64,000 bases of DNA from an uncultured Bacillota bacterium (GCA_934271085.1 CAKQQU010000001.1:9818-73817), one strand, 5' to 3'. Shown: positions 8,983 through 58,078, numbered from the stretch's first letter. Notes: generated by a model from the letters alone, not told the origin. Numbers and translations: made by a program.

Positions 8983-9107
8983 AAACTTCCTCCGTAAACG
9001 TGAAACTAAATGACAGGTGTTATTTTGCAGGTATTATCCCAAGATTGTCACCGGCATTTCCCTGATTGAAAAAAGCATAAATATTGCGTTTCTCCCAATG
9101 CCAATAT

Positions 9108-9161
9108 ATATAGTAGCATAATATCATCATCTGGATATAGTAGCATAATATCATCATCTGG
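9108..9161. repeat. perfect tandem duplication of a 27-bp unit (ATATAGTAGCATAATATCATCATCTGG x2) in the trkA / WG-repeat divergent intergenic region
   Basis: Seen directly in the sequence. Each unit carries a -10-like CATAAT. Confidence 0.8.
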
Positions 9162-9271
9162 CAAAAAATCAAGAGCAGCTATAAAAATAATTGATATTTT
9201 GCAGTCTTTATATTTGCTTACGCTCCTGATTGTGTTAAAATATATAAGAATATCCAGGAGGGTACGGGTAA

Positions 9272-10132
9272 GTGGAAATAAAAGAAACACCAGGGCAAAC
9301 CTTATTGACTTTGATCAGGGTGGTCATTTATGCTGTTGCCGCTTTATGCTCCTTTGGTATAAATGATCTTGCCGATTCTTTTTTTACAGCCATACGCAGC
9401 GGCGAGGGCCTTTTCCAAGTGGAGCAGGCCCAGCAACAGCCTCCGGCTTATGGTGAACCTTATATACTTTATTATGACCAGGATCTGGGTAATGATAACA
9501 AACGCCACGTTTACCGCCAGTACTATATTTTCGGCGGTAACGATGCGTACGGATTAAAAGATTCGGTAGGCAACCAGCTACTTCCCGCCGTTTATCAGGA
9601 TATCATTGTTTTGCCGGAAAGCTATTTGCTGCAGGAAAACGGATTGTGGCGTTTTTATTCTCATGATCTGGAGCTTTTAAGCGACGATGAATGGGAGGAT
9701 GTGGAGATTGCCAAAGATGAATCCGGCAAGATCAGCAGCGATCTGGTGAAGGTCTGTCGCGATGACCTTTACGGCGCTGCCGATCAGCAGGGAGAGATCA
9801 TGGTATCTCCCCGTTGGGAAAGCCTGGAGCTTTATGCCCTCGAGGCAGGCTGGCCCCTTATCAGGGTCAGCAGCGATGGCAAATACGGCTATATTGACAG
9901 GGATGGCAATGTGGTGATACGGGTTCGCTATGATTATGCTCAGATGGGAGAATATCTGGAAACAGACAGCGACGGCCAGCAAAGAGAGGTCACTGTCATT
10001 TATGTTTACCGGGATGAACAGTGGGGTGCTATTTTTAAAAGCCGCAACGGCGATCCTTCGGAAGTGAACTGGGATATAAGTCCCAGCGAGGAAATACTGG
10101 CGGATTGGCAAGCCATGGAAGAGGATCAATAA
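9272..10132 (+). CDS. WG-repeat (KWG-like) containing protein with N-terminal membrane anchor
   Basis: DGKYGYIDRDGNVVI-type WG repeats. Hydrophobic N-terminus. GTG start after AGGAGGG. Confidence 0.5.
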   Translation: MEIKETPGQTLLTLIRVVIYAVAALCSFGINDLADSFFTAIRSGEGLFQVEQAQQQPPAYGEPYILYYDQDLGNDNKRHVYRQYYIFGGNDAYGLKDSVGNQLLPAVYQDIIVLPESYLLQENGLWRFYSHDLELLSDDEWEDVEIAKDESGKISSDLVKVCRDDLYGAADQQGEIMVSPRWESLELYALEAGWPLIRVSSDGKYGYIDRDGNVVIRVRYDYAQMGEYLETDSDGQQREVTVIYVYRDEQWGAIFKSRNGDPSEVNWDISPSEEILADWQAMEEDQ

Positions 10133-10192
10133 GTATTGATCTTATCTTATTCATAATAACAGAAGCCACAGAAAATATTCTGTGGCTTTTTG

Positions 10193-10843
10193 CTACTCTT
10201 TTTCTGCCAGTTTCTTTTCCAGCTTGGCACAGCGCTTCTGCAGTATGTCTATGGCATCGTGGAGGCGGTGGAACTCTTTCATTACCGGGTCGGGCAGATT
10301 TATCTGATTAAGGTCTGTGGAAGGAATACGCTTACTGTCCTGTTTGACCATGCGTCCGGGAACGCCGGCAACGGTAGTATTGGGAGGCACTTCCTTCAGC
10401 ACCACAGAGTTGGCGCCTATCATGGAATTATCCCCAACTTTAAAGGGGCCCAGAACCTTTGCCCCTGCGCCTATCAGAACATTATTGCCTATGGTCGGAT
10501 GGCGTTTACCGGTATCTTTACCGGTACCCCCCAGGGTGACCCCATGATAAATTGTACAGTTGTCGCCTATCTCCGCTGTTTCGCCTATTACTATGCCCAT
10601 GCCGTGATCGATGAAAAGATTTTTGCCGATAGTAGCTCCGGGATGGATCTCGATACCGGTGAAATGACGGCCCAGCTGGGAAATTAGTCTGGCAAAGGTA
10701 TACCGGTGATGACGGTAGAGAAAGTGGGCGGGCTTATGCCATACCAGAGCATGAAAGCCTGCGTAAAGAAAGACCACAGAAAGAACGCTGGTAGCTGCAG
10801 GATCTTTTTGGGCAATATTTTTGGCGTCTGACCAAAGTGACAT
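10193..10843 (-). CDS. cysE: serine O-acetyltransferase
   Basis: Left-handed beta-helix hexapeptide repeats ([35 protein letters not shown]) and a CysE-like N-terminus. Confidence 0.85.
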
Positions 10844-11081
10844 ATTTTTACCCCCTGTTATCTGGCGGCAATCCTTAGTAATATGCTAGGTTATTCTATT
10901 ATTATACTCAGCGTCTGACCAAATTGCAATCCCCGGTGATATTTTTCTGGAATAGCCCCGAGCCTTTTGCTTCCCAGATAATAAAGGATTTGCTGGTAAA
11001 CAGGCGAATATTAAACAAATCAGGAAATAATACTGATTGTCCGGTATTCTGCTCCCGGGCAATATGTAAGGAGGATATTAT

Positions 11082-11702
11082 ATGAGATGTATAGTTTGCG
11101 GTACTGAGATACCGGAAAACTGCGCCTTTTGCCCGGAATGCGGCGTTAAGGTGGAATCTATGGAAGCTGCTATACCTCAGCCGGGAGATTTTTCCGGGCA
11201 GGCTGCTGCTGTAACTTCTGCTGAGCAGGGTGAGTCTGCGCAACCTGTAGCCAGTCCCGGCGCTCCGGTGCCGCCGGTGGTAAATCCGGGTGCGCCAAAT
11301 GGTCAGCCGGTTTTGCAGCCGGTTTTCTTTGATGACAATTCCGCGCCTATCGTTACTACCGGTCATTGGCTCGTCACTTTGCTTTTATTGCTGGTGATTC
11401 CCCTTGTGGCAGGTATAGTGGCGGCCATTATCTCCAAGCTGATAAGCGGCAATATCGGCGTCCTGCCCAGCCTGGTAGCTGCCGTTATTGTTCTGGTGAT
11501 GGAGTTTATTTGGGCCTTCAGCAAAACTACCAATCCATCCAAACGTAATTTCTTCCGGGCCCAGCTTATTTATACGGCAATAATAATTGTGCTGACCATT
11601 ATTCTCATGCTGGTTTTAGGTGCCATGATGATGAACGGTGCCCTGGATCTTGGAGATTTGCAGTATTTTATTAAGCAGTATTTTATTAATATGATGGGAT
11701 AA
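11082..11702 (+). CDS. zinc-ribbon domain membrane protein (N-terminal CxxC...CxxC, Pro-rich linker, 3-4 TM helices)
   Basis: MRCIVCGTEIPENCAFCPECG zinc ribbon. RBS GTAAGGAGG. Confidence 0.55.
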   Translation: MRCIVCGTEIPENCAFCPECGVKVESMEAAIPQPGDFSGQAAAVTSAEQGESAQPVASPGAPVPPVVNPGAPNGQPVLQPVFFDDNSAPIVTTGHWLVTLLLLLVIPLVAGIVAAIISKLISGNIGVLPSLVAAVIVLVMEFIWAFSKTTNPSKRNFFRAQLIYTAIIIVLTIILMLVLGAMMMNGALDLGDLQYFIKQYFINMMG

Positions 11703-11751
11703 TATGTAGTAATATATCCTGCAGTTGAAAACTGGCTGAGGGAGGAGCTTG

Positions 11752-13053
11752 ATGGTTCAGAAAATTATTGTGATCGGCGGAGGGATTGCAGGTCTTTCCG
11801 CAGCACAGGCCGCACGGGAAACTGATCCTGCAGCTAGGATACATCTTATTTGCGGTGAAAAGCGGTTGCCATATTACCGGACCAGGATCTGCGAGATCTT
11901 TTCCGGTCTTGACCCCGATAAGCTGGTGGTCCGTAATTTTCAGTGGTTTATAGACGCCGATATAGATGTGGTGATGGCTTTCGTTACATCAGTAAATTCC
12001 GAAACACGGCAGGTGCGTTTTTCTGACGGCAGTTATCTTTATTACGATAAACTGATCATTACTACCGGCGCTAATGGCAATCTGCCGCCTGCCAGAGGTA
12101 ATGATTCTCCCAATGTGGTGCCGCTGCGGAAGATGGCCGATATAGGGAAAATCCAGTCTTTTACCGGGCCGGTGGTTGTTGTGGGGGACGGCTTGTTAGG
12201 TCTGGAAGCCGCCTGGCATCTTTCCCGGGAAGGACGCTCCGTAGTGATAGTAGGCAGAGGCGACCGTTTGCTTTCCCGGCAGCTTGATAAGGAAAGCAGT
12301 AGTTTCTTCCTGAATATTGTGGAAAAAGCCGGTATCAGGGTAGCTTTACGGGGCGATCTGGAAGCTATTGAGGATGGCCAGGCTATTTTGGCTGACGGAA
12401 GAGGATTTGACGCTGCGGCAGTGGTCTTTGCCGCCGGTATCAAAAGCGATATCACTTTGGCTAATCGTATGGGCCTGTTTTGCAACAGGGGAATTGTGGT
12501 AGACGAGCATATGCATACCAATCTGCCGGATATTTGGGCTGCAGGCGACTGCGCGGAATATGAAGGCCGGGTATATGGTCAATGGAAGGTTTCCATGGCT
12601 CAGGGAAGCGTGGCAGGCGCATGTGCCGCAGGCGCTGACAAGAGCTATGAGCCGGATCAGCCGGCTTATCTGATGAACGCCATGGGAACCAAAGTCTGGA
12701 GCAGCGGTGATATCGATGCCGCAGACAGCCTTTGCGAAAAAGATACCCATAAGGGCAATCTGATAAAGCTGTTTTTTGCTGATGGTATTCTTGCAGGCGC
12801 AGAGCTGATAGGGGATACTGCAAAAATGCTGGGACTGAAAAAAGCTATTGATCAGGGTATCAGCAGGGATAAAGCTATTGAACAATTTTTGAATATAAAA
12901 CAGGAGGAAATAAAAATGCAGAAATACGAATGCAAAATATGCGGTTATGTTTATGACCCGGCGGAAAATGATGGAGTTCCCTTTGAGCAGTTGCCTGATG
13001 ATTGGGTATGCCCCCTTTGCGGTGTAGGCAAGTCTGAATTTGAGGCCCAATAG
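11752..13053 (+). CDS. NAD(P)H:rubredoxin oxidoreductase (FAD pyridine nucleotide-disulfide oxidoreductase) fused in-frame to a C-terminal rubredoxin domain
   Basis: GGGIAG FAD motif and a second Rossmann motif (VVVGDGLLG). C-terminal [15 protein letters not shown]...[10 protein letters not shown] rubredoxin. An internal AGGAGG sits 8 nt before the rubredoxin Met (12916), with no stop between the domains. Confidence 0.75.
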
Positions 13054-13091
13054 CCCATAATAAAACGGGCTCCAACCCTTTGCTGCATATA

Positions 13092-13132
13092 AAAAGAGGA
13101 GGTCTTTTTAAAAGGCCTCCTCTTTTATTTTG
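13092..13132. terminator. bidirectional terminator between rubredoxin-fusion gene and HAD hydrolase gene
   Basis: AAAAAGAGGAGGTC-TTTTTAAAA-GGCCTCCTCTTTT. Confidence 0.75.
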
Positions 13133-13151
13133 ATCTGCCTAACTAAGCAGA

Positions 13152-13787
13152 TCAAACCAGTGATAACAGCAGTTTTCGCAGCTGGTCTGCATCATGGCAG
13201 ATATAGTCCGCGCCTATTTCCCGGAAAGCCTTTTCACTGCTGGCCCCCCAGGTAACACCTACGGTATCCATACCGGCATTTTTGCCGCATGCTATATCGT
13301 GTATGCTGTCGCCGATAAAATAGCATTCCCCGGGCGGGGTAGCCAGTTCTTCCGCAGCGCCCAGAGCAGGTCCTGCTTCGGGCTTGCAGCCATAACCGCT
13401 TTCGCAGTTGATTATTGCTGAAAAGTATTTTTTGAGCCCGATCTTCTCCAGGCTTTCATGGGCGGGCTGGCGGCGTTTGGAGGTACATACCCCCAGGGCG
13501 GCGCCTGCTGCTTCCAGATCGGACAGCATTCTGTCCATGCCGGGGAAAGCCTGCAGATCAAAAACTGTTTTGGCATATGTTTCCATATAGGCGTCGGCAT
13601 ATTCCCGGCCCCTGCCGGGTCCCAGCAGATCCTCACCGGTCTGGATCAAAGGTATGCCCACATACTCGATGATAGTATCTTCACTGACTGTTTTGCCCAA
13701 CCGGGCAAAGCTGCGTTTGGCCACATCCAGAATATTGGGGATGCTGTCTGCCAATGTACCGTCCAGATCAAAGATAAAAGCAGTCAT
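13152..13787 (-). CDS. HAD-IA family hydrolase (phosphoglycolate phosphatase-like)
   Basis: FIFDLDGTLADS motif I and a motif IV DxxxD-like signature (GDSIHD). Confidence 0.75.
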   Translation of the reverse strand: MTAFIFDLDGTLADSIPNILDVAKRSFARLGKTVSEDTIIEYVGIPLIQTGEDLLGPGRGREYADAYMETYAKTVFDLQAFPGMDRMLSDLEAAGAALGVCTSKRRQPAHESLEKIGLKKYFSAIINCESGYGCKPEAGPALGAAEELATPPGECYFIGDSIHDIACGKNAGMDTVGVTWGASSEKAFREIGADYICHDADQLRKLLLSLV

Positions 13788-13847
13788 GTTTATTCCTTTT
13801 CATTTGTTGCAGTATATATATTATCAAAATATGCAGCATCCGCAGTT

Positions 13848-15014
13848 TTATGCCTGTTTATTCAAATATGCCGCAATAGTTGCATTGTAGACCTGCTTGA
13901 AAGTGGTATTGTGCTGCTGGGCTGCCAAAGCAACTTCATCAGCCTCCGGGGCTGCTGTATCGCCGCTGATCTTAATGCTTATATTGCCGTAAGGGGTGGA
14001 AACCTTTTCCCAGCGGCGGGGCATTATCAGCCTTTGCTTGCTTTCTACGCGCAGGCCTATGGTACTGGTATGCTTAAAAACCAGGTCGGCGAATTTCTCT
14101 GCCTGCCCTTTGGGTACTATCATTTCCAACTGCCAGCCGGGCCGGCCTTTTTTCATCAGCATAGGCAGGTAACTCATATCCAGTGCTCCCAGCTCAGCCG
14201 ATTTTCCCCACAGTTGTCCCAATAATTCTCCGCTGGCGTCGTCTATATTGGTAGTTAGCACATCTACTGTGTCATGGGCAAATTTTTGGGGATAAGAGCC
14301 TGTTTCTCCCAGCATTGCCCGAAGAATATTTGGCTGACAGGAAAAGTCTTTGGTTCCCGCGCCGCAGCCTATATTAAGCAGGGTAAAATCCGGCTTCTCC
14401 TGTATGGCGCCGCTGCCCCGCAGAATGGCTGCCCCGGTAGGGGTAATAGTCTCGCCGGTGACAGGGCTGGCGAAAAGCTGCCATCCCTGCAGCAGGATAG
14501 CAGCCGCAGGGGCGGGAACAGGCAGGCGGCCATGTTCGCAATCCACAAATCCTGAGGAAAGGGGAAGCGGGGAAAAATATATCTGTTCTATATCCAGCAT
14601 ATCGATGGCCAGCGCAGCACCGCAAATATCCAGCAGGGAATCCACGGCTCCCGCTTCATGAAAATGTACATCGTCCACAGGGCAGCCATGGGCTTTTGCT
14701 TCGGCCTCTGCCAGACAGGCGAATATATCCAGGGCCAGCTTTTTGCCACGCGCCGGCCAGTCCATAGGTTCAATCATTTCCCTGATGCTTCGATAGGAGC
14801 GGTGATGATGCTGGTGGGGAAAAGTGAAGTCCAGATGCAGGCCGCTGATTCCATGCCTGCTGACGTCAGCCAGCTCCATTTGCCAATCATGCAAAGGCAG
14901 CTTGCTCAATTCTCTAAGCAGAATATCTTTTTCTGCGCCCAACTGCAGCATAGCTGCTAAAAACATATCTCCCGCAATACCGCTGGCACAATCCAGATAA
15001 AGTATTTTGTTCAT
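13848..15014 (-). CDS. larC: nickel-pincer cofactor biosynthesis protein LarC (DUF111 nickel insertion CTP-dependent enzyme)
   Basis: N-terminus MNKILYLDCASGIAGDMFLAAMLQLGA is typical of LarC/DUF111. 388 aa. Confidence 0.75.
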   Translation of the reverse strand: MNKILYLDCASGIAGDMFLAAMLQLGAEKDILLRELSKLPLHDWQMELADVSRHGISGLHLDFTFPHQHHHRSYRSIREMIEPMDWPARGKKLALDIFACLAEAEAKAHGCPVDDVHFHEAGAVDSLLDICGAALAIDMLDIEQIYFSPLPLSSGFVDCEHGRLPVPAPAAAILLQGWQLFASPVTGETITPTGAAILRGSGAIQEKPDFTLLNIGCGAGTKDFSCQPNILRAMLGETGSYPQKFAHDTVDVLTTNIDDASGELLGQLWGKSAELGALDMSYLPMLMKKGRPGWQLEMIVPKGQAEKFADLVFKHTSTIGLRVESKQRLIMPRRWEKVSTPYGNISIKISGDTAAPEADEVALAAQQHNTTFKQVYNATIAAYLNKQA

Positions 15015-15877
15015 GCTTTCCCCTTTATTTTATGTTTTCTTTGGGAGGTTTTATCGTAGCTGCCGCTGACAAGTCCCGCCAGATCCAGGCATACGTAATT
15101 AAATCCCACCTGCTGTAATTGATCGGTGATCTCTTTTCTGTGCTCCATGACCAGTATCTCCTCCTGGGGATCAATTTCCAGGCGGGCCAGATCTCCATGT
15201 ACCCGCAGGCGCAAATTATCCATTCCCAGCTGTCTTAAAACTGATTCGCCATCCTCCGCCATTTCCAGTGCCTTTTTCGTGATAAGCGTATTGTAAGGGA
15301 AACGGCTGATAAGGCAGGGCGAGGCGGGCCGGTTATAATTACGCAGACCCAGTTCTTTGCTTTGGGCCCGGATATCTTCTTTAGTGAATCCGGCATCTAT
15401 CAGTGGATGGAGCACGCCCGTTTCATCTGCGGCTTTGGTTCCCGGGCGATAGACGTCAGGAGCTATATCATCCATATTGCAGCCGTCGGCAATATAATGG
15501 TATCCCTGCTCCCTCGCCAGATCAGCCGCAGCCTCATAAAGGGCTTTCTTGCAAAAATAGCAGCGGCTTTCTTCATTATTTAAAACCTGGGGGATATTAA
15601 GGGTGTTAAGCTCCAATATCTGATGGGAAAGCGCCAGTTCCCTGCCTATAGCTGCCGCCTCGGTAAGGTCGCGGCGGGCTATTGTGGGAGTCATAAAAGT
15701 AAGAAGAAGCGGTTGGCAGCCTGCTTCTTTGGCCGAGGCTGCAAGCATGGTGCTGTCTACACCGCCGGAAAAGCAGATGACCAGGCCGTCTTTTCCAAGT
15801 TTTTGCAGATCAAGGCAAAGCTTATTGAATTTTTTTTGCAGGGTGGCATTGGTAAGGTTCTTGTTCATTTTACTCAT
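15011..15877 (-). CDS. larE: ATP-dependent sacrificial sulfur transferase LarE (PP-loop ATP pyrophosphatase)
   Basis: SGGVDS PP-loop plus the conserved PASPCLISR cysteine motif. ATGA overlap with larC. Confidence 0.75.
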   Translation of the reverse strand: MSKMNKNLTNATLQKKFNKLCLDLQKLGKDGLVICFSGGVDSTMLAASAKEAGCQPLLLTFMTPTIARRDLTEAAAIGRELALSHQILELNTLNIPQVLNNEESRCYFCKKALYEAAADLAREQGYHYIADGCNMDDIAPDVYRPGTKAADETGVLHPLIDAGFTKEDIRAQSKELGLRNYNRPASPCLISRFPYNTLITKKALEMAEDGESVLRQLGMDNLRLRVHGDLARLEIDPQEEILVMEHRKEITDQLQQVGFNYVCLDLAGLVSGSYDKTSQRKHKIKGKA

Positions 15878-15879
15878 TC

Positions 15880-17709
15880 CTATTCGTTTTCCAGAGTTTT
15901 GGTCATGGCTGTAAAAATATCCAGGGCTTTTTTCAGCGGTTGGGTATCAGTCATATCTACTCCTGCCGCTTTCAGCAGATCAATAGGATCAGCGCTGCTT
16001 CCGGAGGAAAGAAAATGCAGGTAACGGTTGCGGGCTTCTTCTGCTTTAGCCGGGTCTTCAGCCAGCAGCCCGGCGGCCAGGGCGCTGGCTGCGCAAAAGC
16101 CTGTGGCATATTTATAAACATAATAGGCTCTGTAAAAATGGGGTATGCGCATCCATTCTTTGGAAATCCGCTGGTCTACATCTACCTGGGGCCCGAAATA
16201 ATCCAGGTTAAGCTGATAATAAATCTCGTCCATCTGGCGGGCGGTCAGTGATTCGCCGTTTTGGGCCAACAGATGTATTTTCAGCTCGAATTCGGCAAAC
16301 ATGGTTTGGCGGAATACCGTTCCCCGGAATTCTTCCAGATAATGGTTTACCAGATAATGCATTTCGTCTTTGCTGGCAGCATTTTTCAGCAGATAATCCA
16401 CAAGCAGGTTTTCATTTACCGTGCTGGCTACTTCCGCGACAAAGATGCGGTAATCGCTGTAAATATAGGGCTGATGACGGCGGGAATAAAGGGAATGCAT
16501 GGAATGGCCGGCCTCATGAGCCAAAGTGAAAACGCTGCTGAGGTTCTCCTTATAGTTCAGCAATATATAGGGATCAGTGCCATATACTCCTGATGAATAG
16601 GCTCCGGAGCTTTTACCTTTCGTCTCATAAACATCGACCCAGCCGTTATCTATGCCTTGCCGCAGTTCTCTGGTATATTCTTCGCCCAGAGGATAAAGTG
16701 CCTTTTCTACGATATTCTTAGCTTCCTGCCAGCTAAAGGTAAGCGGTAATTCCGGATATAACGGTACATACAGATCGTACATAGCCAGCTTATCAAGTCC
16801 CAGACGGCGGCGGCGTACTTCCAGATACCGCTGAAAAGCCGGCAAATAACTGCGCACGGTGGCAATAAGCTGATGATAAACATCCTGGGGGATATTATCC
16901 CCATCCAAAGACGCGGCCAAGGCATTTTCGTAACCCCGGGCACGGGCATAAAAGTTGTCTTTTTTTACCGAAGAACTGAGAGTGGCGCCAATGGTATTGG
17001 TATATTTGCCATAGGTATCATACAGCGCTTCATAAGCATTACGCCTTAACTGGCGGTCGGTAGATTGCAGCAGCAGAATATAATTGCCGGAAGAAAGCTG
17101 TATGCTTTTTCCGTTGCTGTCGGTCACCTGGGGGAATTCTATATCCGCATCGGTAAGCATGGAGTAAATGGTATCAAAGCTGCCTGCCATTTCTCCTGCT
17201 CCTGCCAGCAGTTTTTCCTGATCGGGGCTGAGGGTATGGGGTCTCATCCTGGTAATATCATTGATATAGCGCCTGTATATGCCAAGATCTTCCCGTTCCA
17301 GCCAGGACTGCAGCTTTTTCTCATCCATGGCCAGTATCTCCGGGGAGAAGAAAGAGAGCAGGACAGATGCTTCCACCGCAACTGATTCAGCGGCGCTGCG
17401 CATGGCCTGCGCTGCAGGATCGCCGTTATCTTCATCCTGCCTCATAGCGGCATAGACATAGACTTTTTCGATAAGCTGGGAAAGCTTTTCGTCCCAAGTC
17501 AGAAAATCCCTTAATTTTTCGGGGCTTTCAGCCAAATGCCCCTGAAACTCCTTTGCCTGGGGAAGCAGGGATTTTATTTTTTCCAGATCAGCCTTCCAGG
17601 AAGCTTCATCTGCATATATTTTATCTATGCGCCATTTATATTCCGGGGCTATTTTATCTCTGGTAGGTATTTTATCGCTCATGGGTATCCTCTTTTTACT
17701 GTTGATCAT
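15880..17709 (-). CDS. pepF: oligoendopeptidase F (M3B family)
   Basis: 609 aa with the HEAGHSMHS zincin motif. Confidence 0.85.
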
Positions 17710-50306: not shown

Positions 50307-51800
50307 TTAGCCGGCGCTGCGTATCAGCTGTATGGTTTTGCCCAACTCACTGTCCAGCAGGGGTCGGCCGGTGAGGCAGCGCATATCCAGCTTCATATAA
50401 TCATCTTTGTTGACATTCAGCAGCAGCGCTCCGCTATAGCCGTCTTCATAATAGCTGTTATAATAATAGACCATGCCTTCCTGGGTCATTCCCAGATACG
50501 CTATGTTGCCCACCAGAATGGGGGAATCATATCCTGTCTGATCGGAATAGATGGTCAGGCTGGCTTCTCCGGGATATATATCTACAAAATAAAAGGTGTT
50601 TGCTGTGGAATAGCCCCAGGAATCGCAAATATTATATGGTAAGACGCTCCCTGCCGCAAGCGCCGGGTCAGTCAGCTCATGGCTTTGCCCTTGGGAATCG
50701 ACAGCAAAAACAGCGGCATATGAATTATCGCTGTTGGGACGGGCTTCAAAGGATACTATATCCCTTATCCCGGCCAGGCGCCCGCCGCAGACCAGATAGC
50801 CCGCCTGCAGCCCCATGCTGATATCTGCGTATTCCACATGGCCGTCCTCTGTAAGCAGGAAAAGATAGACAAAGTTGTCATTAACTATAGGACCTACAAA
50901 AATGTCGCTGTAATTATTATAGGCCCCCTGCAGCAGATAAGTACCGCTTTCCGCCCCCAGTGACGCCAGAAAATCAGCGCCTTCCGGGGTGTCTTCTATA
51001 TCAATAGTGATCTCGCCGCCTTCTAGTGTGGCGCGGACAGGGCCCCATTGGGAAGCTTTTTCCGGCTGGGATGGGGCGGCATTAACAGTAATAAGCTGAT
51101 AATACCAGCTTGCCCCTGCAATAGAGCCGATAGGCTGGGCCACTTCAAGCTGACCTTCATCGTTAAGATAAAGCAGTCCGTCTATGCTGATATTATCATT
51201 GCCAATAGTCCAGCTGCGCTGGATATAATTATCATAGTTTAATTCGCTGCCGTCAATATCGCCGTACATATCATCGAAGGTGTTGATTGCCGCTGCCCGC
51301 AGCTGGGTGAGAAACTCTTCCCGGCTAAGGCCTGCTATTGCCAGCAGCTGTTCATTGTCCAACTGTTCGTCTGCCTCAAAATCATAGTTGAATATGCAAT
51401 ATTCAGTATAGTCATTATCCATATATATGGCGATGACCAGTGAAAGCAGGCTGCCGTTCCAGTGGCTTTGCCAGTTGATGTTACTGGGAGTATAAAGCCA
51501 TCCCTGATCCATGTTATAGTGAGCTTCTTCCATTATAGGGTCAAAAACAGTCGCTATTTGCTGATTTATGCTCTCGGCTCCCGGGGTTTCTGCCAGAATC
51601 TGGGGAATGTGATAGGAATAATTCCAGGTATTGCCATAGGTGTCGGTAGCGCTGCCTTCTTCACTGTAAATTTCGCCGATCAGGCTGTCGTCATAGACGC
51701 TCTGGCTGTTGGGATCATCCGTCGGATCTTTGCCGCAGCCTGCCAGCAGTAAAGCTAGCATCATGGCTGCAATGGCAAGCAATAATAATTTATGTTTCAT
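50307..51800 (-). CDS. large lipoprotein, hypothetical (498 aa)
   Basis: Lipobox LLLAGCGKDP after MKHKLLLLAIAAMMLA. RBS AAAGGAGGAT. No recognisable catalytic motif. Long (~285 bp) ORF-free upstream region. Confidence 0.55.
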   Translation of the reverse strand: MKHKLLLLAIAAMMLALLLAGCGKDPTDDPNSQSVYDDSLIGEIYSEEGSATDTYGNTWNYSYHIPQILAETPGAESINQQIATVFDPIMEEAHYNMDQGWLYTPSNINWQSHWNGSLLSLVIAIYMDNDYTEYCIFNYDFEADEQLDNEQLLAIAGLSREEFLTQLRAAAINTFDDMYGDIDGSELNYDNYIQRSWTIGNDNISIDGLLYLNDEGQLEVAQPIGSIAGASWYYQLITVNAAPSQPEKASQWGPVRATLEGGEITIDIEDTPEGADFLASLGAESGTYLLQGAYNNYSDIFVGPIVNDNFVYLFLLTEDGHVEYADISMGLQAGYLVCGGRLAGIRDIVSFEARPNSDNSYAAVFAVDSQGQSHELTDPALAAGSVLPYNICDSWGYSTANTFYFVDIYPGEASLTIYSDQTGYDSPILVGNIAYLGMTQEGMVYYYNSYYEDGYSGALLLNVNKDDYMKLDMRCLTGRPLLDSELGKTIQLIRSAG

Positions 51801-52085
51801 GTTATCCTCCTTTTTGCTGTGGGCTGTCAGACTGAGTGAGCTGTCTGCTTTCGAGCATTTTCCACAATGCATTATCTACATTTTAGCCTAGGGAATAGGG
51901 GTTGTCACTAGCACTTTTGCCAGTTTGTTCTTAACCCGGCTTTGCCCCATCCTTTGCCGCTGTAGACAGAGCCCAGGTGCGGCTATAGACAGGTATATAT
52001 GGGCCTATGTTATTTTATTGGCGCTGTCTTTGGTCGGTGTATGGCCTGAATAGACCAGGGGCGGAGGCAGGCTTAAATACGGTAA

Positions 52086-52125
52086 TAAAAAGAGCAAGCC
52101 GCAGCAGCCAGCTTGCTCTTTTTAT
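52086..52125 (-). terminator. rho-independent terminator downstream of the GRE-operon SDR gene
   Basis: AAAAAGAGCAAGC-CGCAGCAGCCAG-CTTGCTCTTTTT. Confidence 0.75.
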
Positions 52126-52148
52126 GTTCTTCTGTAAGCAGTTGCGTT

Positions 52149-52949
52149 TTATTTTTCGGGGTCGTAGGTGAAAACACGGGTGCAGGCCCAGCCGCCGTCT
52201 ACCAGGAAGGTCTGACCGGTGACGAATTTACCGGCTTCGCTGGCCAGGAAAAGGGCTATGCCCAGATAATCGTCAGTTTCGGACATTCTGCCCATGGGTA
52301 CCTGAGCGATAGCGGCATCCAGATAGGACTGGGGGCGCTGAGCCATCATGGGGGTGTTGATCCAGATGGGAGCGATACCGTTGACGGTGACGCCCTTGGG
52401 AGCCATTTCTACGGCAAAGAAACGGGTAGACTGCATAACGCCGGCTTTGCTCACTGCATAGGCCATAGCATCGTTGGCATTGACGGAGAAAGCATCGATG
52501 GAATTGTAATCGATGATGCGGCCCCAGCCATTCTTAACCATGACTTTACCGACTTCCTGATTGAGGAATATGGAGCCCAGCAGATTTGTCTCCAAAGTGC
52601 TTCTTAAGGTTTCTTCCCGGAATTTCAGGGTGTTTTCCACGAAGCAGTTAGCGGCAGTATGGATAAGTACGTCGATGCGGCCGTATCTTTTTTCTACCTC
52701 GGCTACCTTGGCAATGATATCGGCATGATCGGCAATATCCATCTGGATAGTATCAATAGTCAGGCCCTCGTCAGCCAGCATTTTTTTAACTTCTTCCAGT
52801 TGCTCGGCACGTCTGGTTGCCACAATGACTTTGGAGCCGTTTTTGGCAAAGCAGCGGGCATTGGCTTTGGCTACGCCGCCGCCGCCGGTGATCAGGACTA
52901 TTTTGCCGCTAACGTCAAACATGTTTTCGATCAGTTGCATATCTTTCAT
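52149..52949 (-). CDS. SDR-family NAD(P)-dependent oxidoreductase, last gene of the glycyl-radical-enzyme operon
   Basis: TGGGGVAKA Rossmann motif and YAVSK (YxxxK) catalytic motif. RBS GGAGGAAA, 23 nt after the activase stop. Confidence 0.8.
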   Translation of the reverse strand: MKDMQLIENMFDVSGKIVLITGGGGVAKANARCFAKNGSKVIVATRRAEQLEEVKKMLADEGLTIDTIQMDIADHADIIAKVAEVEKRYGRIDVLIHTAANCFVENTLKFREETLRSTLETNLLGSIFLNQEVGKVMVKNGWGRIIDYNSIDAFSVNANDAMAYAVSKAGVMQSTRFFAVEMAPKGVTVNGIAPIWINTPMMAQRPQSYLDAAIAQVPMGRMSETDDYLGIALFLASEAGKFVTGQTFLVDGGWACTRVFTYDPEK

Positions 52950-52972
52950 CGATGTTTCCTCCGTTTAAATTT

Positions 52973-53890
52973 TTATATTCCTTGGCCGATGATCTCAGCC
53001 TTGATACCATATTGGGCAAATGTATCTTTGATTTCCAGCAAACGCTGATCTGTGGGCGGAGCATATTCCTGTACATCTCTGTCCAGGGAGCGTAATTTGG
53101 ATATGCCCAGCTTGTGATAGGGTATCAGTACTACATCCCGTATGTCCAGCCCATCCAGAAAAACGGCTGTATCTTCTATGATGGCAGGCGTATCATTCAT
53201 ATCCTTAAGCAGCGGCATCCGGATCTGGATCTTCTCCCGTAAGCCGGGCTCTCCGGAAAGCTTACGTAAATTTTCCAGGATCAGGCTGTTGCTTTGTCCG
53301 GCATATCTGAGATGCACTTCATCATCCAGGGATTTGATGTCGTAGAGGATGATCTGAGCCTGTGAGGCTATTTCCCGCAAATCTTCATATTTGCAAAAAC
53401 CGCTGGTATCGATGGCTACACGTATGCCTGCCTTTTGACAGGCAGCCAGCATTTCCCGGGCAAACCGGGGATGCTGCATGATCTCGCCGCCGGAAAGGGT
53501 CACTCCTCCATTGGTCTTGTCATAAAACTCTTTATCCTGCAATACCTGCTCCATGATCTGCTCTATGGTCATATAATTGGCAGACCAGCGCAGGGCGCCG
53601 CTGTAACACTGCTCCACACAGGCCCCGCAATCGCAGCACTTGTCCCTGAGTATCATAATGGGTTTATCTTTTCCCGGCTGCAGGGCGCCGCTGGGGCAGG
53701 CTTCTATACAGGCTCCGCAGGAAATACAACGGTTTTGGCTGTAAAATAACTCCCTTTCTGCGAACATCATTTCCGGATTATGACACCATTTGCAGCGCAG
53801 AGGACAGCCTTTGATAAAAACGGAGGTGCGTATGCCCGGACCGTCGGAAGTGGAAAATTTTTGGATGCCGCCAATGAGGTACTTTTGCAT
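52973..53890 (-). CDS. glycyl-radical enzyme activating protein (radical SAM, PflA family with two auxiliary ferredoxin-like [4Fe-4S] clusters)
   Basis: CPLRCKWCHNP radical-SAM CxxxCxxC. Additional CISCGACIEACP and CCDCGACVEQC clusters, typical of activases of non-PFL glycyl radical enzymes. RBS AAAGGAG directly after the GRE stop. Confidence 0.85.
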   Translation of the reverse strand: MQKYLIGGIQKFSTSDGPGIRTSVFIKGCPLRCKWCHNPEMMFAERELFYSQNRCISCGACIEACPSGALQPGKDKPIMILRDKCCDCGACVEQCYSGALRWSANYMTIEQIMEQVLQDKEFYDKTNGGVTLSGGEIMQHPRFAREMLAACQKAGIRVAIDTSGFCKYEDLREIASQAQIILYDIKSLDDEVHLRYAGQSNSLILENLRKLSGEPGLREKIQIRMPLLKDMNDTPAIIEDTAVFLDGLDIRDVVLIPYHKLGISKLRSLDRDVQEYAPPTDQRLLEIKDTFAQYGIKAEIIGQGI

Positions 53891-53899
53891 ATGGCTCCT

Positions 53900-56275
53900 T
53901 TAGCAGCTGTGTGCTGTCCTTCTGATAATATCTTCCTGAACATTACGGTCCAGATCGGTGAAGAAGGCTAAATATCCGGCAACCCGCACTACCAGACCGC
54001 GGTAAGCTTCCGGATTATCCATGGCTTTGCGTAAAGTAGCATCATCCACCACATTGATCTGAATATGCTCGCCGTAATGATCGAAGAAGGTTTTGACCAC
54101 GCCCTCGATGATCTCGGTGCCCCTCTCGCCCTCCAGACCGTTGGGATCAAAACGCAGGTTGAACAGGGTTCCATCGAAGGTGTGGAGCTGATCGATATTG
54201 GATACGGATTTTACAGTAGCAGTGGGCCCGGAAATATCCCGTCCGCCGGCGGGAGAAGCATTGTCGCTTAAGGGATCGCCTGCCAGACGACCGTCGGGGG
54301 TAGCGCCGCAGAACTCGCCAAAGAGCAGATTGATGGTTTGGGAGAGATTGCTGACGCAGTATTGGCCGCCCCGGGAATCCCGGAACTGCTGTACATAATC
54401 ACTGCAGGAAACTATGATATCCCTGTAGACTTTATCTACGGAAGGATTGTCATTACCGAATTTATTGGGACGGTTGATAAGCAGCTGACGCAGGCGTTCT
54501 TCTCCATCGTAATTGCTGTCGAGAATGGAGATCAGCTTATCCATGGGCACATTATGGTTCTGGAATACTGCGTAATCCAGCGCTTCGATAGCGTCAGCCA
54601 AGCTGGCCGGGCAGCTGAAGAAGACGCCGGTGTAGTTATGATGGCAGCCGCCTTCCTGTACGGAGATGCCCTTATCTATGCAATCATCCATTATCAGGGA
54701 GGAAAAGATCACCGGCAGCTGTACCGCATGGAAGGGAACTACCCGGTTATAGGCAGAGATAAGCAGATCAAACATATGCTTAAGCTGGGCGATGACCGCA
54801 TCCAACACATCCTGTTTGCAGGTAAAGCTTGCAGGGTCGCCGGTTTCAATGCCGGAGCGCTCGCCGCTGACCGGATCTATGCCATTGTGAAGCACCAGTT
54901 CCAGGGCTTTCATGGCATTGATATAGCCGCCGATGGGGCTGGCATCGGTGCCGCCGCCGCCGGGATGAGGCTCTACGCAGCCCACTACGCTCCAATCGCG
55001 GCATTCTTCCAGGGTGCCGCCTTTGGCTAGGCAGATGGGGATAGCGGCCTTGTCGTTAAAGAAAGCGGGATTGCCGAAGCCGGTCTGCACCATGCGCACG
55101 CCCTTTTTAAACAGATCTTCCGGGGTGCCTTCGTGGATGCGCAGGCCTACTGCGGGCTGATGAAGCTGCACTTCGTTTTGGGCCTCCAGGCACAGATAAG
55201 TGAGATCGTTGGTAGCGTCGTTGCCGTCTTTGTCAACGCCGCCCACCATCAGGATCTGCCACAGGGGGTAACCGGCGAATTTTTTGGCGTCCTCATTGCT
55301 GCGGACGATCAAAAGCTCGCTGGTCTTGATGTAGAAACATTCTATAAGTTCCAGAGCGTCGTCGGGAGTGATAACGCCCTGCTGGATATCTTTTTGATAA
55401 TAAGGCAGCATATACTGGTCATAACGGCCGAAACCGTTGCCGGCGCCGTTGGATTCTACATGAACCAGTAATTGCATGAACCAGACGAACTGTACTGCCT
55501 GCCAGAAGGTCTGGGGGGTATGCTCGGGTACTACCCGGCAGTTGGCGGCGATAGTCAGCAGCTCGCCCCGGCGCTTTTCGTCATCGGTGGCAGCCGCCAT
55601 TTGCTCGGCCAGATCGGCATAGCGATGGGCATAACGGATTATAGCTTCGCATTCGATAATGCAGGCGTTCCAAAAGTCCAGCTTTTCCCGTTCTTCTTTG
55701 GTAACGCCGGCTGTTTCAGATATTTTTTGGCGGCAGCGGTCTATATAGCCGCTGAGGCCTTCTTTCATCAGACGGGCATGATTGGGCATGGTGCCGCTGG
55801 AAGGCATGGTACGGTTGCCAACGATAATCATCCCCAGACGGCGGGCCTGCTGCACATCATCAGGGAGTATGGCTTCGATATTGTGTTCGGAGCTTTTGCC
55901 GAACCACCATGGCAGGTTTTCTTCCAGCAGGGCACGGTTTTCCGCGTCCAGTTCAAAGGGGTCTGTGGTGCGGGTCTGGATATTGTCCAGATTTTCCAGC
56001 AGCCATTCGGCCCGCATATATTCCGGATGGAAGGATACACCCCGCTGCTTTTTGGCCTGGCTGCCGATTACCAGTTCGCCCGGAAAGATCGACAGATCCA
56101 TATGGTCAAGCACATAGGCAAAAACATGAGCCCTGAATAAGGCCGGCGCTTCGCCGGAATATTTGATATATGCGTCTTTGGCCAATACTACCCATTCTGC
56201 GCTGAGATTGGGCCTGGCATCCAGCATATTTTCTTTAAGCATTCTGACTCTGTCTCTCACAGTGCATCCCTCCAT
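53900..56275 (-). CDS. glycyl radical enzyme, eliminase/dehydratase class (single catalytic Cys in GCVEP loop; glycyl motif RVAGY); substrate unknown
   Basis: 791 aa PFL-fold protein. C-terminal VVRVAGYLAFF glycyl radical motif. Cys loop VVGCVEPHPGGGG with Glu at +2 (CutC/HypD/glycerol-dehydratase-like, not the PFL CC pair). Alternative GTG start at 56260 (VRDRVRMLKENML) after GGAGGG may be the true start. Confidence 0.85.
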   Translation of the reverse strand: MEGCTVRDRVRMLKENMLDARPNLSAEWVVLAKDAYIKYSGEAPALFRAHVFAYVLDHMDLSIFPGELVIGSQAKKQRGVSFHPEYMRAEWLLENLDNIQTRTTDPFELDAENRALLEENLPWWFGKSSEHNIEAILPDDVQQARRLGMIIVGNRTMPSSGTMPNHARLMKEGLSGYIDRCRQKISETAGVTKEEREKLDFWNACIIECEAIIRYAHRYADLAEQMAAATDDEKRRGELLTIAANCRVVPEHTPQTFWQAVQFVWFMQLLVHVESNGAGNGFGRYDQYMLPYYQKDIQQGVITPDDALELIECFYIKTSELLIVRSNEDAKKFAGYPLWQILMVGGVDKDGNDATNDLTYLCLEAQNEVQLHQPAVGLRIHEGTPEDLFKKGVRMVQTGFGNPAFFNDKAAIPICLAKGGTLEECRDWSVVGCVEPHPGGGGTDASPIGGYINAMKALELVLHNGIDPVSGERSGIETGDPASFTCKQDVLDAVIAQLKHMFDLLISAYNRVVPFHAVQLPVIFSSLIMDDCIDKGISVQEGGCHHNYTGVFFSCPASLADAIEALDYAVFQNHNVPMDKLISILDSNYDGEERLRQLLINRPNKFGNDNPSVDKVYRDIIVSCSDYVQQFRDSRGGQYCVSNLSQTINLLFGEFCGATPDGRLAGDPLSDNASPAGGRDISGPTATVKSVSNIDQLHTFDGTLFNLRFDPNGLEGERGTEIIEGVVKTFFDHYGEHIQINVVDDATLRKAMDNPEAYRGLVVRVAGYLAFFTDLDRNVQEDIIRRTAHSC

Positions 56276-56317
56276 CTTTGGATTTACTTGCTATGTACTG
56301 TAATGTTAAAGCAATAT

Positions 56318-56341
56318 CAATATTGCAATATCATTATAGCA
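56318..56341 (-). promoter_or_regulatory. extended -10 promoter (TGCTATAAT) for the GRE gene, with an adjacent 12-bp perfect palindrome ATATTGCAATAT (candidate operator)
   Basis: On the minus strand: CATGCTATAATGATATTGCAATATTGATATTGC. The palindrome is at 56320-56331 and the -10 at 56338-56333. Confidence 0.45.
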
Positions 56342-56401
56342 TGTTTTAAATAAATGTTGAGCAGATTAATAATATTTTGACAAAGTTATTGAGAATTCCT
56401 A

Positions 56402-57886
56402 CTATTTAGCTTCTGCTTCGGCAGCTTTTTTCTCGGCATTAATCTGAGATTTGGGGCAGCCGATACCGGTGAGGGCTGTGATCAGTCCAAACAGAGGAGT
56501 AAGGAAGCCCATGAAATAATACATGAAGAACTGGCTCATGGGAACGCCGAAGCACTGAACTACGAAAACGCCGGAAACGCCCCAGGGAACGATGGGCTGC
56601 TGGACGCAGGCTGCATCGGAAATGGTACGGGACAGAACAGCGCGGTCAACATCCAGCTCCTCGTATTTATCACCCAAAGCATTGCAGGGGATAACGCCGC
56701 CGATGAAAGGATCGCCGGTCATGAAGCTCATTACGGTGCTGGAAGTGAAGGTGGAAACGATCAGGCTGAAACGGCTGCGGATGATATTGGCAATACGGTT
56801 TACCATGATGACCAGAACCTTGGTACGACCCAATACTGCGCCGAAGGAGAGAGAGCAGATCAACATAGTCATGTTGTAAACCATGCTGGTCATGCCGCCG
56901 CGGTTGCAGATGGAATCGACAACAGCGGAACCGGATTCGATGCTGAAACCGCCGTAGAGGCAGCCCAGAACTCCACCCAGGCTGGCGCCCTGAGCAAATA
57001 CCGCTACCAGAATGGCAGAAACGGCGCTGAGGATCAGGGAATGGGTGGCAGGCATCTTCATGATAATGGTGATAGCCAGAACTACCAGGGGGATCAGCAT
57101 GGAAATATTAAAGTTGAAGGTGTTGGCCAAACCGTCAATAATGGCCTGGATCTGAGACATATCGGTGGTATGTCCGCTGAACTGGAAGCCCATGATCAGG
57201 AAGATGACAAAGGATACCAGCAAAGCAGGGCCGGAGGTGTAAAGCATATAATGGCAATGACGGTAAATATTGGTTTTGGATACGCCGGCGGCAAATACGG
57301 CATAGTCGGAAATGGGGGACTGTTTGTCGCCGAAGAAAGCGCCGCAGACGATAGCGCCTACAGTCATGCCCAGGGGTATACCCAGGCCCATGGCGATACC
57401 GATGAAGGCCACGCCCAGGGTGCCGCAGGTAGTCCAGGAGGAACCGGTGGCAGTAGACAGGATAGCGCAGATCAGAACTACAAAGGCCAGGAACCAGGTG
57501 GGACTGATCAGTTTCAGGCCAAGATATACCAGGTAAGGAATAGTACCGCTGGCCACCCAGGAGGCGATCAGGATACCGATAGACAACAGGATGAGGAAAG
57601 GAATGTCACCCATGGCTTTCAACATGGATTTCTCCAGATCTACCAGAGAAATATGCAGCACCAGGCGACCGTACAGGGTAACTACGATGACGGCGGCGAT
57701 CAGCGGTACATGAGCGGAGAGGCCCAGCCCCAGGATGCCGAACATCAGAATAGCAGCAGTCAGAAGAAAGACCACGATGGACATGCCCAGCGTGCCCTCT
57801 CGTTCAGGTTTTTTGATTTTTTGGGGCTTTTTTTCCTGAACTTCTTCTGCCGCTGCTTCAGCATTCAGTTCTTTGTTTTCTTCCAT
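56402..57886 (-). CDS. NhaC-family transporter (Na+/H+ antiporter / substrate:cation antiporter family), first gene of the GRE locus
   Basis: 494 aa, ~12 TM, NhaC/MleN-like sequence. RBS GAAGGGAG. Acidic N-terminal tail. Confidence 0.75.
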   Translation of the reverse strand: MEENKELNAEAAAEEVQEKKPQKIKKPEREGTLGMSIVVFLLTAAILMFGILGLGLSAHVPLIAAVIVVTLYGRLVLHISLVDLEKSMLKAMGDIPFLILLSIGILIASWVASGTIPYLVYLGLKLISPTWFLAFVVLICAILSTATGSSWTTCGTLGVAFIGIAMGLGIPLGMTVGAIVCGAFFGDKQSPISDYAVFAAGVSKTNIYRHCHYMLYTSGPALLVSFVIFLIMGFQFSGHTTDMSQIQAIIDGLANTFNFNISMLIPLVVLAITIIMKMPATHSLILSAVSAILVAVFAQGASLGGVLGCLYGGFSIESGSAVVDSICNRGGMTSMVYNMTMLICSLSFGAVLGRTKVLVIMVNRIANIIRSRFSLIVSTFTSSTVMSFMTGDPFIGGVIPCNALGDKYEELDVDRAVLSRTISDAACVQQPIVPWGVSGVFVVQCFGVPMSQFFMYYFMGFLTPLFGLITALTGIGCPKSQINAEKKAAEAEAK

Positions 57887-58049
57887 TAGAATACTCCCTT
57901 CGTAAAAATGATTTGAGAAATAAGTTCATAGCTGATTCAGCAAAACTCCCACTTGCTTTGCTGAATCCGGCCTATGCCAAGGGGATTTCTCCCAAAATTC
58001 AGAAGCATACACAAAATGTGTATTTTATCTGAAAGTTCTTAGCTATCAT

Positions 58050-58078
58050 ATAATAATAAAATTTCAGTAATGTGTCAA
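58050..58078 (-). promoter_or_regulatory. sigma-A type promoter for the NhaC transporter gene (TTGACA-N17-TATTAT)
   Basis: Minus-strand hexamers. A ~165-nt leader follows, containing a 17-bp palindrome ATACACAAAATGTGTAT (57999-58015) and a 10-bp-stem hairpin (57943-57975). Confidence 0.45.

Follow-up and report, generated by a model that had tools for sequence, protein, structure and literature searches.

Introduction

Several glycyl radical enzymes (GREs) of the eliminase kind have been described together with a reductase. The reductase partner of the glycerol and 1,2-propanediol dehydratases is an iron-type alcohol dehydrogenase, whereas that of the locus analysed here is a short-chain dehydrogenase/reductase (SDR), and the pathway of HplG reportedly operates without an SDR. 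In the HpfG/HpfD system, which consists of a 2,3-dihydroxypropane-1-sulfonate (DHPS) dehydratase and a 3-sulfopropionaldehyde reductase, the eliminase is directly followed by the reductase and the reduced product is excreted (PMC11489063; June 2026 review). The chemistry of enzymes with a single catalytic Cys and a Glu at +2 (CxE) is well established: a thiyl radical abstracts the carbinol hydrogen, the Glu deprotonates the hydroxyl, the group on the neighbouring carbon departs and a carbonyl product results (June 2026 review). According to the same review of all characterised GREs, CxE is retained by all known GRE eliminases and isomerases, and whole clades are still unassigned. The present work concerns a four-gene locus of an uncultured Bacillota bacterium, located at positions 52,149 to 58,078 of a 64,000-nucleotide stretch (GCA_934271085.1 CAKQQU010000001.1:9818-73817, hereafter the window), which encodes an NhaC-family secondary transporter, a GRE, its activating radical S-adenosylmethionine (SAM) enzyme (activase) and an SDR. 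On sequence grounds, the locus encodes a GRE of the eliminase/isomerase kind that is as yet uncharacterised and has an SDR dedicated to it. An earlier note on this DNA had placed its partner genes outside the described GRE pathways, and indeed the review contains no GRE with an NhaC and SDR partner set.

Sequence and fold of the GRE

The GRE matched PF02901 (584 bits, E = 5e-175, residues 8 to 653) and the C-terminal glycyl radical domain PF01228 (E = 1.7e-27), and it aligned end to end with seven solved GREs. Its RVAGY (G767) and GCVEP (C433 and E435) motifs fell in register with the Gly and Cys loops, respectively, of CutC, HplG and the glycerol and propanediol dehydratases. The Gly loop reads RVAGY in HplG, the two dehydratases and the PDB entry 9RCO as well. 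The enzyme has a single catalytic Cys with CxE, not the Cys-Cys pair of pyruvate formate-lyase (PFL). Both motifs had been read correctly in the earlier note, and its assignment of the enzyme to the eliminase class stands. E435 was invariant across an alignment of 22 sequences of the CxE clade. The features of the PFL-like GRE superfamily are present, namely the RVxG domain, a ten-stranded PFL-like barrel with the catalytic Cys on a finger loop and an adjacent activase. Glycyl-radical formation, O2-sensitive activity and elimination or isomerisation at a carbinol carbon are predicted for this enzyme. An AlphaFold2 (AF2) model of the GRE reached a predicted TM-score (pTM) of 0.84 and, in Foldseek, TM-scores of 0.92 to 0.93 to glycerol dehydratase, propanediol dehydratase and HplG.

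No characterised GRE exceeded 60% identity to the protein. The nearest solved relative by sequence was HplG (582 bits, 37% identity), glycerol dehydratase was 35% identical, and Foldseek gave 28 to 36% identity to all solved GREs, including HypD, HpyG, HpzG, CutC, PflD, YbiW, IseG, IslA and HpsG. None of the NCBIfam equivalog cut-offs was reached, the scores being about half of the cut-off throughout: 559.3 bits against 1100 for HypD (NF043068), 492.2 against 1050 for CutC (TIGR04394), 507.6 against 1000 for HpsG (NF048011) and 505.8 against 1000 for HpfG (NF048009). With the PFL2-3 subfamily model TIGR01774, the GRE scored 678.1 bits against a curated cut-off of 678.2, and this shortfall of 0.1 bit illustrates how peripheral its family is to the curated models.

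More than 3,000 relatives of the GRE came up in a protein search, none of them with a specific name. Those at least 55% identical retained the motif GC[V/I]EPHPGGG. In a neighbour-joining tree, the CxE clade grouped together with a clade bearing Gln in place of the Glu (CxQ, see below), and HplG lay on a long separate branch. By this tree, the GRE is part of an uncharacterised monophyletic family that is the sister of HplG. The family ranges over Clostridia of the human, mouse and ruminant gut and Synergistota.

The SDR and the activase

The SDR matched PF00106 and PF13561 and reached no equivalog cut-off. Its Gly-rich motif TGGGGVA and the tetrad N122, S150, Y164 and K168 were conserved in 66 family members. 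R46 was also conserved and no acidic residue was found after beta2; since, by the usual SDR rule, these two features indicate a preference for NADP(H), the protein is probably an NADP(H)-dependent keto-reductase. The SDR family was sharply bounded, with 67 hits of at least 219 bits and the next ones at 170 bits or less, and the best PDB match of the SDR scored 138 bits. Of the distinct loci of the CxE clade in which the GRE has 3 kb or more of flank on each side (full-flank loci), 15 out of 15 carried an SDR homologue (at least 150 bits) within 3.5 kb of the GRE. Named members of the SDR family also share genomes with the GRE relatives. Given this linkage, the bounded family and the shared genomes, the SDR is, as judged from comparative genomics, a dedicated and co-inherited partner of the GRE, in agreement with the role the earlier note had given it.

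The activase scored 315.7 bits with TIGR02494 (cut-off 174) and remained under every substrate-specific activase equivalog cut-off. It consists of Radical_SAM and Fer4 domains, with the CX3CX2C motif at C29/C33/C36. The two extra CxxCxxCxxxC clusters that had been noticed before are present in ferredoxin-like form at C55/C58/C61/C65 and C85/C88/C91/C95. An activase homologue adjoins the GRE in nearly all relatives.

Comparison with characterised enzymes

The beta1 "common site" touches the substrate in known enzymes through Gln193 in IslA, Asp216 in CutC and His160 in HypD (PMC8473560). The residue opposite His164 of glycerol dehydratase was G161 of the present GRE in a MAFFT alignment and Thr162 in a HMMER alignment. 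I448 stands in place of Asp447 of glycerol dehydratase, and G279 occupies the position of an Asp in HplG and of Ser282 in glycerol dehydratase. The beta3 residue is Phe333, a Phe being likewise found in CutC (Phe389) and glycerol dehydratase. The Cys loop exceeds that of HplG by one residue (EPHPGGGG versus EPQVLG), and its His437 is clade-specific. As aligned, the residues that serve as acid/base or bind the amine in the diol dehydratases, HypD and HplG are missing from the GRE. The lack of a general acid at beta1 hints at a leaving group that would need no protonation, such as ammonium, and the kinship to HplG hints, by analogy, at a C-N cleavage yielding a methyl ketone.

The gene content of the window was scanned with Pfam on all 51 other predicted genes and with phmmer, using PduA and EutN as queries, on all open reading frames (ORFs). 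Neither bacterial microcompartment (BMC) shell genes nor genes for aldehyde dehydrogenase, pyrroline-5-carboxylate (P5C) reductase or cut, pdu or dha functions were found in the whole 64 kb, as the earlier note had held.

HplG is the best sequence match and has the same length and fold (TM-score 0.93) and the CxE Cys loop; a GRYDQYM segment and an S/T-Q segment on beta8 are common to both enzymes, and in the tree HplG is sister to the family. The two differ in the pocket, where the HplG residues, assigned as substrate-binding from alignment only, are His157 (beta1), an Asp-His pair (beta2) and an Asp (beta3), replaced here by G161, G279-N280 and Phe333. The HplG-pathway partners hydroxyproline (Hyp) epimerase and OrtAB were not found near the GRE in Pfam scans of the window genes. 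Identity with HplG was rejected because of the 37% sequence identity, the replaced contact residues and the position of HplG outside the family clade.

The B12-independent glycerol and 1,2-propanediol dehydratases (PDB 1R8W, 5I2A and 9RCO) are the top structural matches (TM-score 0.92) and share CxE. They dehydrate their substrate to a carbonyl compound that is then reduced with NAD(P)H as an electron sink, which resembles the arrangement proposed here. They are, however, only 33 to 35% identical, their His164, Asp447 and Ser282 correspond to Gly161, Ile448 and Gly279, and no BMC shell, pdu or dha genes accompany the present locus. A diol dehydratase was rejected because the His and Asp that handle the leaving hydroxyl are missing.

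Like HpfG/HpfD, the locus combines a GRE with a reductase, but it fails the HpfG cut-off and the window has no sulfoglycolysis genes. The isethionate sulfite-lyases IslA/IseG, with the sulfoacetaldehyde reductases SarD or IsfD, also pair a GRE with a reductase; the lyases are 28 to 30% identical to the present GRE, near which no BMC or sulfite-reductase genes were found. The sulfonate-binding triad Arg189/Gln193/Arg678 is confined to IslA homologues (PMC8473560). The segment equivalent to Arg678, YCVSNLSQT, contains no Arg, although this triad comparison to IslA is less certain than the others. A sulfonate (C-S) lyase, such as IslA/IseG or HpsG, and likewise HpfG, was rejected on the missing Arg/Gln/Arg triad, with the same reservation, and on the failed equivalog cut-offs.

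The trans-4-hydroxy-L-proline dehydratase HypD (with P5C reductase), HpyG and HpzG are CxE eliminases of gut Clostridia that act on hydroxy amino acids, with NAD(P)H-dependent reduction of the product. They share 31 to 32% identity with the present GRE, in which the equivalents of HypD His160 and Asp278 are missing, as is the P5C reductase gene from the window; identity with HypD was rejected on this absence and on the failed NF043068 cut-off. The choline trimethylamine-lyase CutC is a CxE C-N eliminase whose Phe389 matches Phe333. It is 30 to 32% identical, and neither BMC nor cut genes were found here. CutC was rejected because TIGR04394 failed, because Asp216 is replaced by Gly161 and because of the missing BMC genes.

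Relatives and their transporters

The neighbourhoods of 48 loci from named genomes and of further metagenomic contigs were compared, their flanks being scored with the window proteins. The NhaC carrier scored 374.2 bits with TIGR00931 (cut-off 370) and 312 bits, under the cut-off, with the ArcD-type model. It is presumed from its context to be the substrate importer or a substrate/product antiporter. The linkage of NhaC with the GRE, as proposed in the earlier note, proved to be conserved in all loci of the closest subclade (GREs 63 to 75% identical) and only there, so that it is not family-wide. This subclade includes a Hadza Oscillospiraceae metagenome-assembled genome (MAG), a mouse Dorea sp. 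and Lachnospiraceae bacterium 3-2, with GRE identities to the query cassette of 75% in Oscillospiraceae and 68 to 69% in Lachnospiraceae. The strain 3-2 is a cultured carrier, and its cassette (L015) is the 69% one. Its cassette reads [ORF of 160 to 240 aa]-NhaC-GRE-activase-SDR-[regulator], the bracketed ORF having no assigned function. That ORF lies directly 5' of NhaC in the closest relatives (L001 6007-6498, L006 427-1161, L007 2390-3001 and L011 8011-8499), shares the motifs NLC[MV]QAF, TNGTCWL and VQLALQL, and had no match in Pfam. A regulator with HTH_3 and cupin domains was found in many relatives' loci. The nearest relatives of NhaC without a GRE (48 to 51% identity) lie within amino-acid fermentation clusters.

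Other subclades carry other transporters. The TRAP DctPQM subclade has a LysR regulator in addition, the polar-amino-acid ABC subclade a GntR regulator and an HcnABC/D-hydroxyproline-dehydrogenase-like set, and an amino-acid ABC subclade, with the order SDR-GRE-activase, a class I/II aminotransferase; further subclades have SSF, MFS, MatE or BCCT carriers. The carriers NhaC, TRAP DctPQM, polar-amino-acid ABC, SSF, MFS and BCCT are all types for small polar solutes. These varying carriers and neighbours point to small polar substrates, carboxylate- or amino-acid-like, which would differ by subclade. The beta1 residue varies along with them, being Gly/Asn in the NhaC subclade, His in the sister CxE subclades, Lys with SSF, Ala with BCCT and Glu in the CxQ clade, and this suggests a set of related yet distinct substrates.

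Cassettes of the form GRE-activase-(SDR)-BCCT were observed in L044 (Dorea sp. MAG, 9992-15745), L045 (4650-9624) and L052 (Cloacibacillus MAG, 9086-15969, also with an HTH-cupin regulator). Their GREs are more distant members of the CxE clade (44 to 49% identity). A carrier of the BCCT type hints at a quaternary amine or compatible solute as the substrate, for instance carnitine or a betaine bearing a hydroxyl; a literature search found no GRE acting on compounds of this kind other than choline.

The large CxQ sister clade (at most 54% identity, including Aminipila luticellarii; relatives P0023-P0034, P0039, P0053, P0070, P0074, P0092, P0093 and P0101, and loci L005, L020-L036, L042, L047, L048 and L057) has GC[I/T]QP, in which Gln replaces the catalytic Glu. 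Its beta1 common site holds a Glu (SGET), and the residue matching Asp447 of glycerol dehydratase is also Asp. Some of its 90%-identity clusters hold 600 to 900 sequences. SDRs occur in about half of its loci and are more generic (60 to 130 bits). Since all known eliminases and isomerases retain CxE according to the review, this clade may have a relocated base or a different chemistry. The Aminipila luticellarii locus (Nramp, amino-acid permease and aldo-keto reductase) was dropped as context, because it belongs to the CxQ clade by alignment.

Some genomes carry three GRE genes at one locus (L016-L019; for example Ventrimonas faecis, L019 3352-15796). Here, an HTH-cupin regulator, an SSF transporter, an SDR, a GRE and an activase are accompanied by a second GRE that shares about 50% identity with the query, and a third, distant GRE with its own activase lies on the opposite strand. 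The tandem GRE paralogues of these loci are not alike in their beta1, beta2 and Cys-loop residues.

Organization of the operon

As shown in Table 1, the four ORFs are co-directional on the minus strand, exactly where the earlier note had placed them, and Pfam and NCBIfam confirmed the families it had named. All four were intact, with their catalytic residues present. Read from the sequence, the four genes are one operon with a putative promoter, a structured leader and a terminator.

Table 1. Coordinates of the genes and predicted signals of the operon in the window.
Feature	Position	Strand	Remarks
NhaC-family secondary transporter	56402..57886	-	494 aa; PF03553, TIGR00931
Glycyl radical enzyme (GRE), 1,2-eliminase/isomerase type (predicted)	53900..56275	-	791 aa ORF; PF02901 + PF01228
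GRE-activating radical SAM enzyme (activase)	52973..53890	-	305 aa; TIGR02494
Classical SDR	52149..52949	-	266 aa; adh_short, adh_short_C2
Putative operon promoter, TTGACA, 17 nt, TATTAT	58050..58078	-	11/12 matches; consensus match only
Structured 5' leader, about 160 nt, upstream of the NhaC gene	57887..58045	-	Folding versus shuffles
Promoter-like site, TCAACA, 16 nt, TG-n-TATAAT (extended -10), and inverted repeat GCAATATTGATATTGC	56311..56360	-	NhaC-GRE spacer
Intrinsic terminator after the SDR gene, AGAGCAAGC ... GCTTGCTCT then T-run	52084..52119	-	Sequence read; inner stem by scan

The compactness reported before holds for two of the three junctions. The ribosome-binding site (RBS) of the activase, AAGGAG, abuts the GRE stop codon, with the ATG 9 nt further on, and the SDR ATG lies 23 nt beyond the activase stop with the RBS GGAGG. 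The NhaC-GRE junction is not tight, because its spacer measures 126 nt and has a promoter-like site of its own. The reported 791-aa GRE exists as an ORF; however, its ATG at 56275 is not preceded by an RBS, and a GGAGGG is present 7 nt 5' of a GTG at 56260. As relatives measure 786 to 787 aa, translation probably starts at GTG 56260 and yields 786 aa.

The putative operon promoter was the top promoter-like site of the region in a consensus scan. The leader folded with a minimum free energy of -49.7 kcal/mol (z = -4.43 versus 200 shuffles, none of which folded as well) and holds a 13-bp hairpin and a helix pairing with the GGGAG RBS. It matched no Rfam family, the only hit being preQ1-II on the opposite strand at chance level (E = 0.89), and BLAST against all fetched relatives' loci gave no homologues, only chance-level AT-rich matches. 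Relatives carry a protein regulator instead, and the leader, seen as a single sequence, could be a regulatory RNA. In the NhaC-GRE spacer, GCAATATTGATATTGC forms a perfect 7+7 inverted repeat directly after the promoter-like site and occurs only once in the window; the two make up a possible internal promoter with a putative operator.

The cassette has a G+C content of 0.50 to 0.54 (52000-58000) against 0.47 to 0.48 in the preceding 6 kb, and it is flanked by housekeeping genes, with TrmO on one side and a PsuG-like gene and CoaD on the other. The slightly raised G+C content and the closest relatives, which belong to different families, are consistent with a horizontal spread of the cassette among gut Clostridia. 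Identical gene copies were found in several independent gut metagenomes, including Hadza gut. The other window genes are housekeeping or unrelated ones, such as SecA, RF2, a split transketolase, CoaD, Nth, TrmO, RluA, TrkAH, peptidases and a MazF toxin, and an amino-acid ABC system lies 11 kb from the operon. Just 3' of the operon terminator, on the same strand, a predicted lipoprotein of 521 aa (50307-51872, minus strand) without Pfam match has a promoter-like site of its own (51908-51880). It adjoins the SDR gene in contigs of the same species (L064 and L065), not in other carriers of the cassette, and is probably unrelated to the cassette.

Proposed function

Taken together, these features suggest a self-contained operon for the anaerobic radical 1,2-elimination of one imported small polar hydroxy compound, followed by reduction of the carbonyl product by the SDR, a reading to which we give a probability of about 0.55. 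We infer that the substrate is probably of amino-acid or carboxylate type, and likewise the direction and cofactor of the SDR step. In this proposal, the NhaC-type carrier would import a carboxylate- or amino-acid-type molecule with a hydroxyl beside a leaving group, maybe by substrate/product antiport. The three-cluster activase would use SAM to generate the glycyl radical on G767, and the radical would then move to C433. The resulting thiyl would abstract the carbinol hydrogen while E435 would deprotonate the hydroxyl, and the ketyl radical so formed would expel its neighbour (amine or hydroxyl) or open a ring, leaving a ketone or aldehyde after return of the hydrogen. Reduction of this carbonyl to an alcohol by the NADP(H)-type SDR would make the module double as a redox sink. 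The net outcome would be a deoxygenation or deamination with disposal of reducing equivalents, as with HpfG/HpfD or glycerol dehydratase/1,3-propanediol dehydrogenase.

Several points weigh against this proposal. The substrate class is deduced from genomic context. The AF2 model fell below a per-residue confidence (pLDDT) of 50 in the active-site loops 156-162, 275-279, 332-337, 431-446 and 759-791, so that it was used for the fold only. The amino-acid hints come from sister subclades with His at beta1, not Gly/Asn, which may use other substrates. The carrier passes the NCBIfam "Na+/H+ antiporter" equivalog cut-off and could be an ion antiporter only. The HTH-cupin regulator and the small ORF of the relatives are absent from the window, where tblastn found no remnants of them. 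Finally, the gene order is silent on the sequence of the SDR and GRE steps.

In the main rival, the SDR would act upstream. It would reduce a keto or aldehyde compound, either imported or made by an aminotransferase, to the alcohol substrate of the GRE, and the GRE product would pass straight into central metabolism. The model for this order is IslA, for which SarD/IsfD supply isethionate by reduction of sulfoacetaldehyde. The sister subclade with SDR-GRE-activase, a class I/II aminotransferase and an amino-acid ABC system mirrors the order of the taurine pathway (aminotransferase, reductase, GRE), the SDR gene lies 5' of the GRE in several subclades, and Pfam scans of the window found no enzyme to use up the aldehyde or ketone formed. 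The minimal cassette of the window's own subclade, however, consists of transporter, GRE, activase and SDR only, and the scheme would require the nutrient itself to be a free keto or aldehyde compound, a rarer kind than hydroxy compounds. Moreover, most known reductases adjacent to GREs act downstream (HpfD, 1,3-propanediol dehydrogenase and P5C reductase), and the anion triad of IslA is not reproduced, with no Arg at the Arg678 equivalent. We consider this order of steps unlikely.

It is quite improbable that the genes are merely adjacent and form no functional unit, with NhaC as a generic Na+/H+ antiporter or with a cluster that is decaying or inactive after the loss of its regulator. The antiporter cut-off reached by NhaC, the 126-nt spacer with its own promoter-like site and the missing regulator and small ORF would fit such a state; yet the synteny NhaC-GRE-activase-SDR is kept across Oscillospiraceae and Lachnospiraceae at 63 to 75% GRE identity, the ORFs are intact with good RBSs, and identical copies recur in independent metagenomes. 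Least probable is a diverged orthologue of a characterised GRE (HplG, HypD, a diol dehydratase, CutC or a sulfonate lyase) with the same substrate and a lineage-specific accessory SDR: the HplG score and a fold indistinguishable from those of glycerol dehydratase, propanediol dehydratase and HplG are outweighed by identities of 28 to 37%, equivalog scores at about half the cut-offs, replaced substrate-contact residues, a clade of its own apart from HplG, and the absence from the window of OrtAB, Hyp epimerase, P5C reductase, BMC shell and aldehyde dehydrogenase genes.

Elimination followed by SDR reduction is thus the preferred reading. A further-reaching version of it, which we put forward tentatively and hold to be rather unlikely, is that the GRE-SDR family, the NhaC-linked subclade included, represents a new functional class of GREs, whose members would cleave C-N (or C-O) bonds in beta-hydroxy amines or hydroxy amino acids so far not among the known GRE substrates. 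Substrates of the hydroxylysine, 4-amino-3-hydroxybutyrate (GABOB) or carnitine type would be examples, and a methyl-ketone acid might be formed by analogy with HplG and then be reduced by the SDR. A literature search turned up neither an SDR-linked GRE nor one that uses hydroxylysine, sulfolactate, hydroxyethylphosphonate, hydroxyglutamate, dihydroxybutyrate, hydroxyornithine or carnitine as its substrate. The new substrate that the earlier note had suggested is likely but unproven.

Significance

Pairing a GRE with a reductase is a well-known arrangement, seen in HpfG/HpfD, glycerol dehydratase/1,3-propanediol dehydrogenase and HypD/P5C reductase, and no concept is overturned here, unassigned GRE clades being numerous (June 2026 review). 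The locus does offer a compact four-gene handle on an unassigned family and a clean experimental target from a human-gut organism, in which the SDR partner and the varying carriers set concrete constraints for substrate screening. Past assignments of GRE substrates have exposed host-relevant gut chemistry, such as the formation of trimethylamine from choline, the release of H2S from sulfonates and the use of collagen hydroxyproline. If the family were indeed a new functional class, the locus would stand for a so far undescribed way in which a compound from the host or the diet is used anaerobically in the human gut, and its BCCT-linked relatives could be an unrecognised source of amines, for example trimethylamine.

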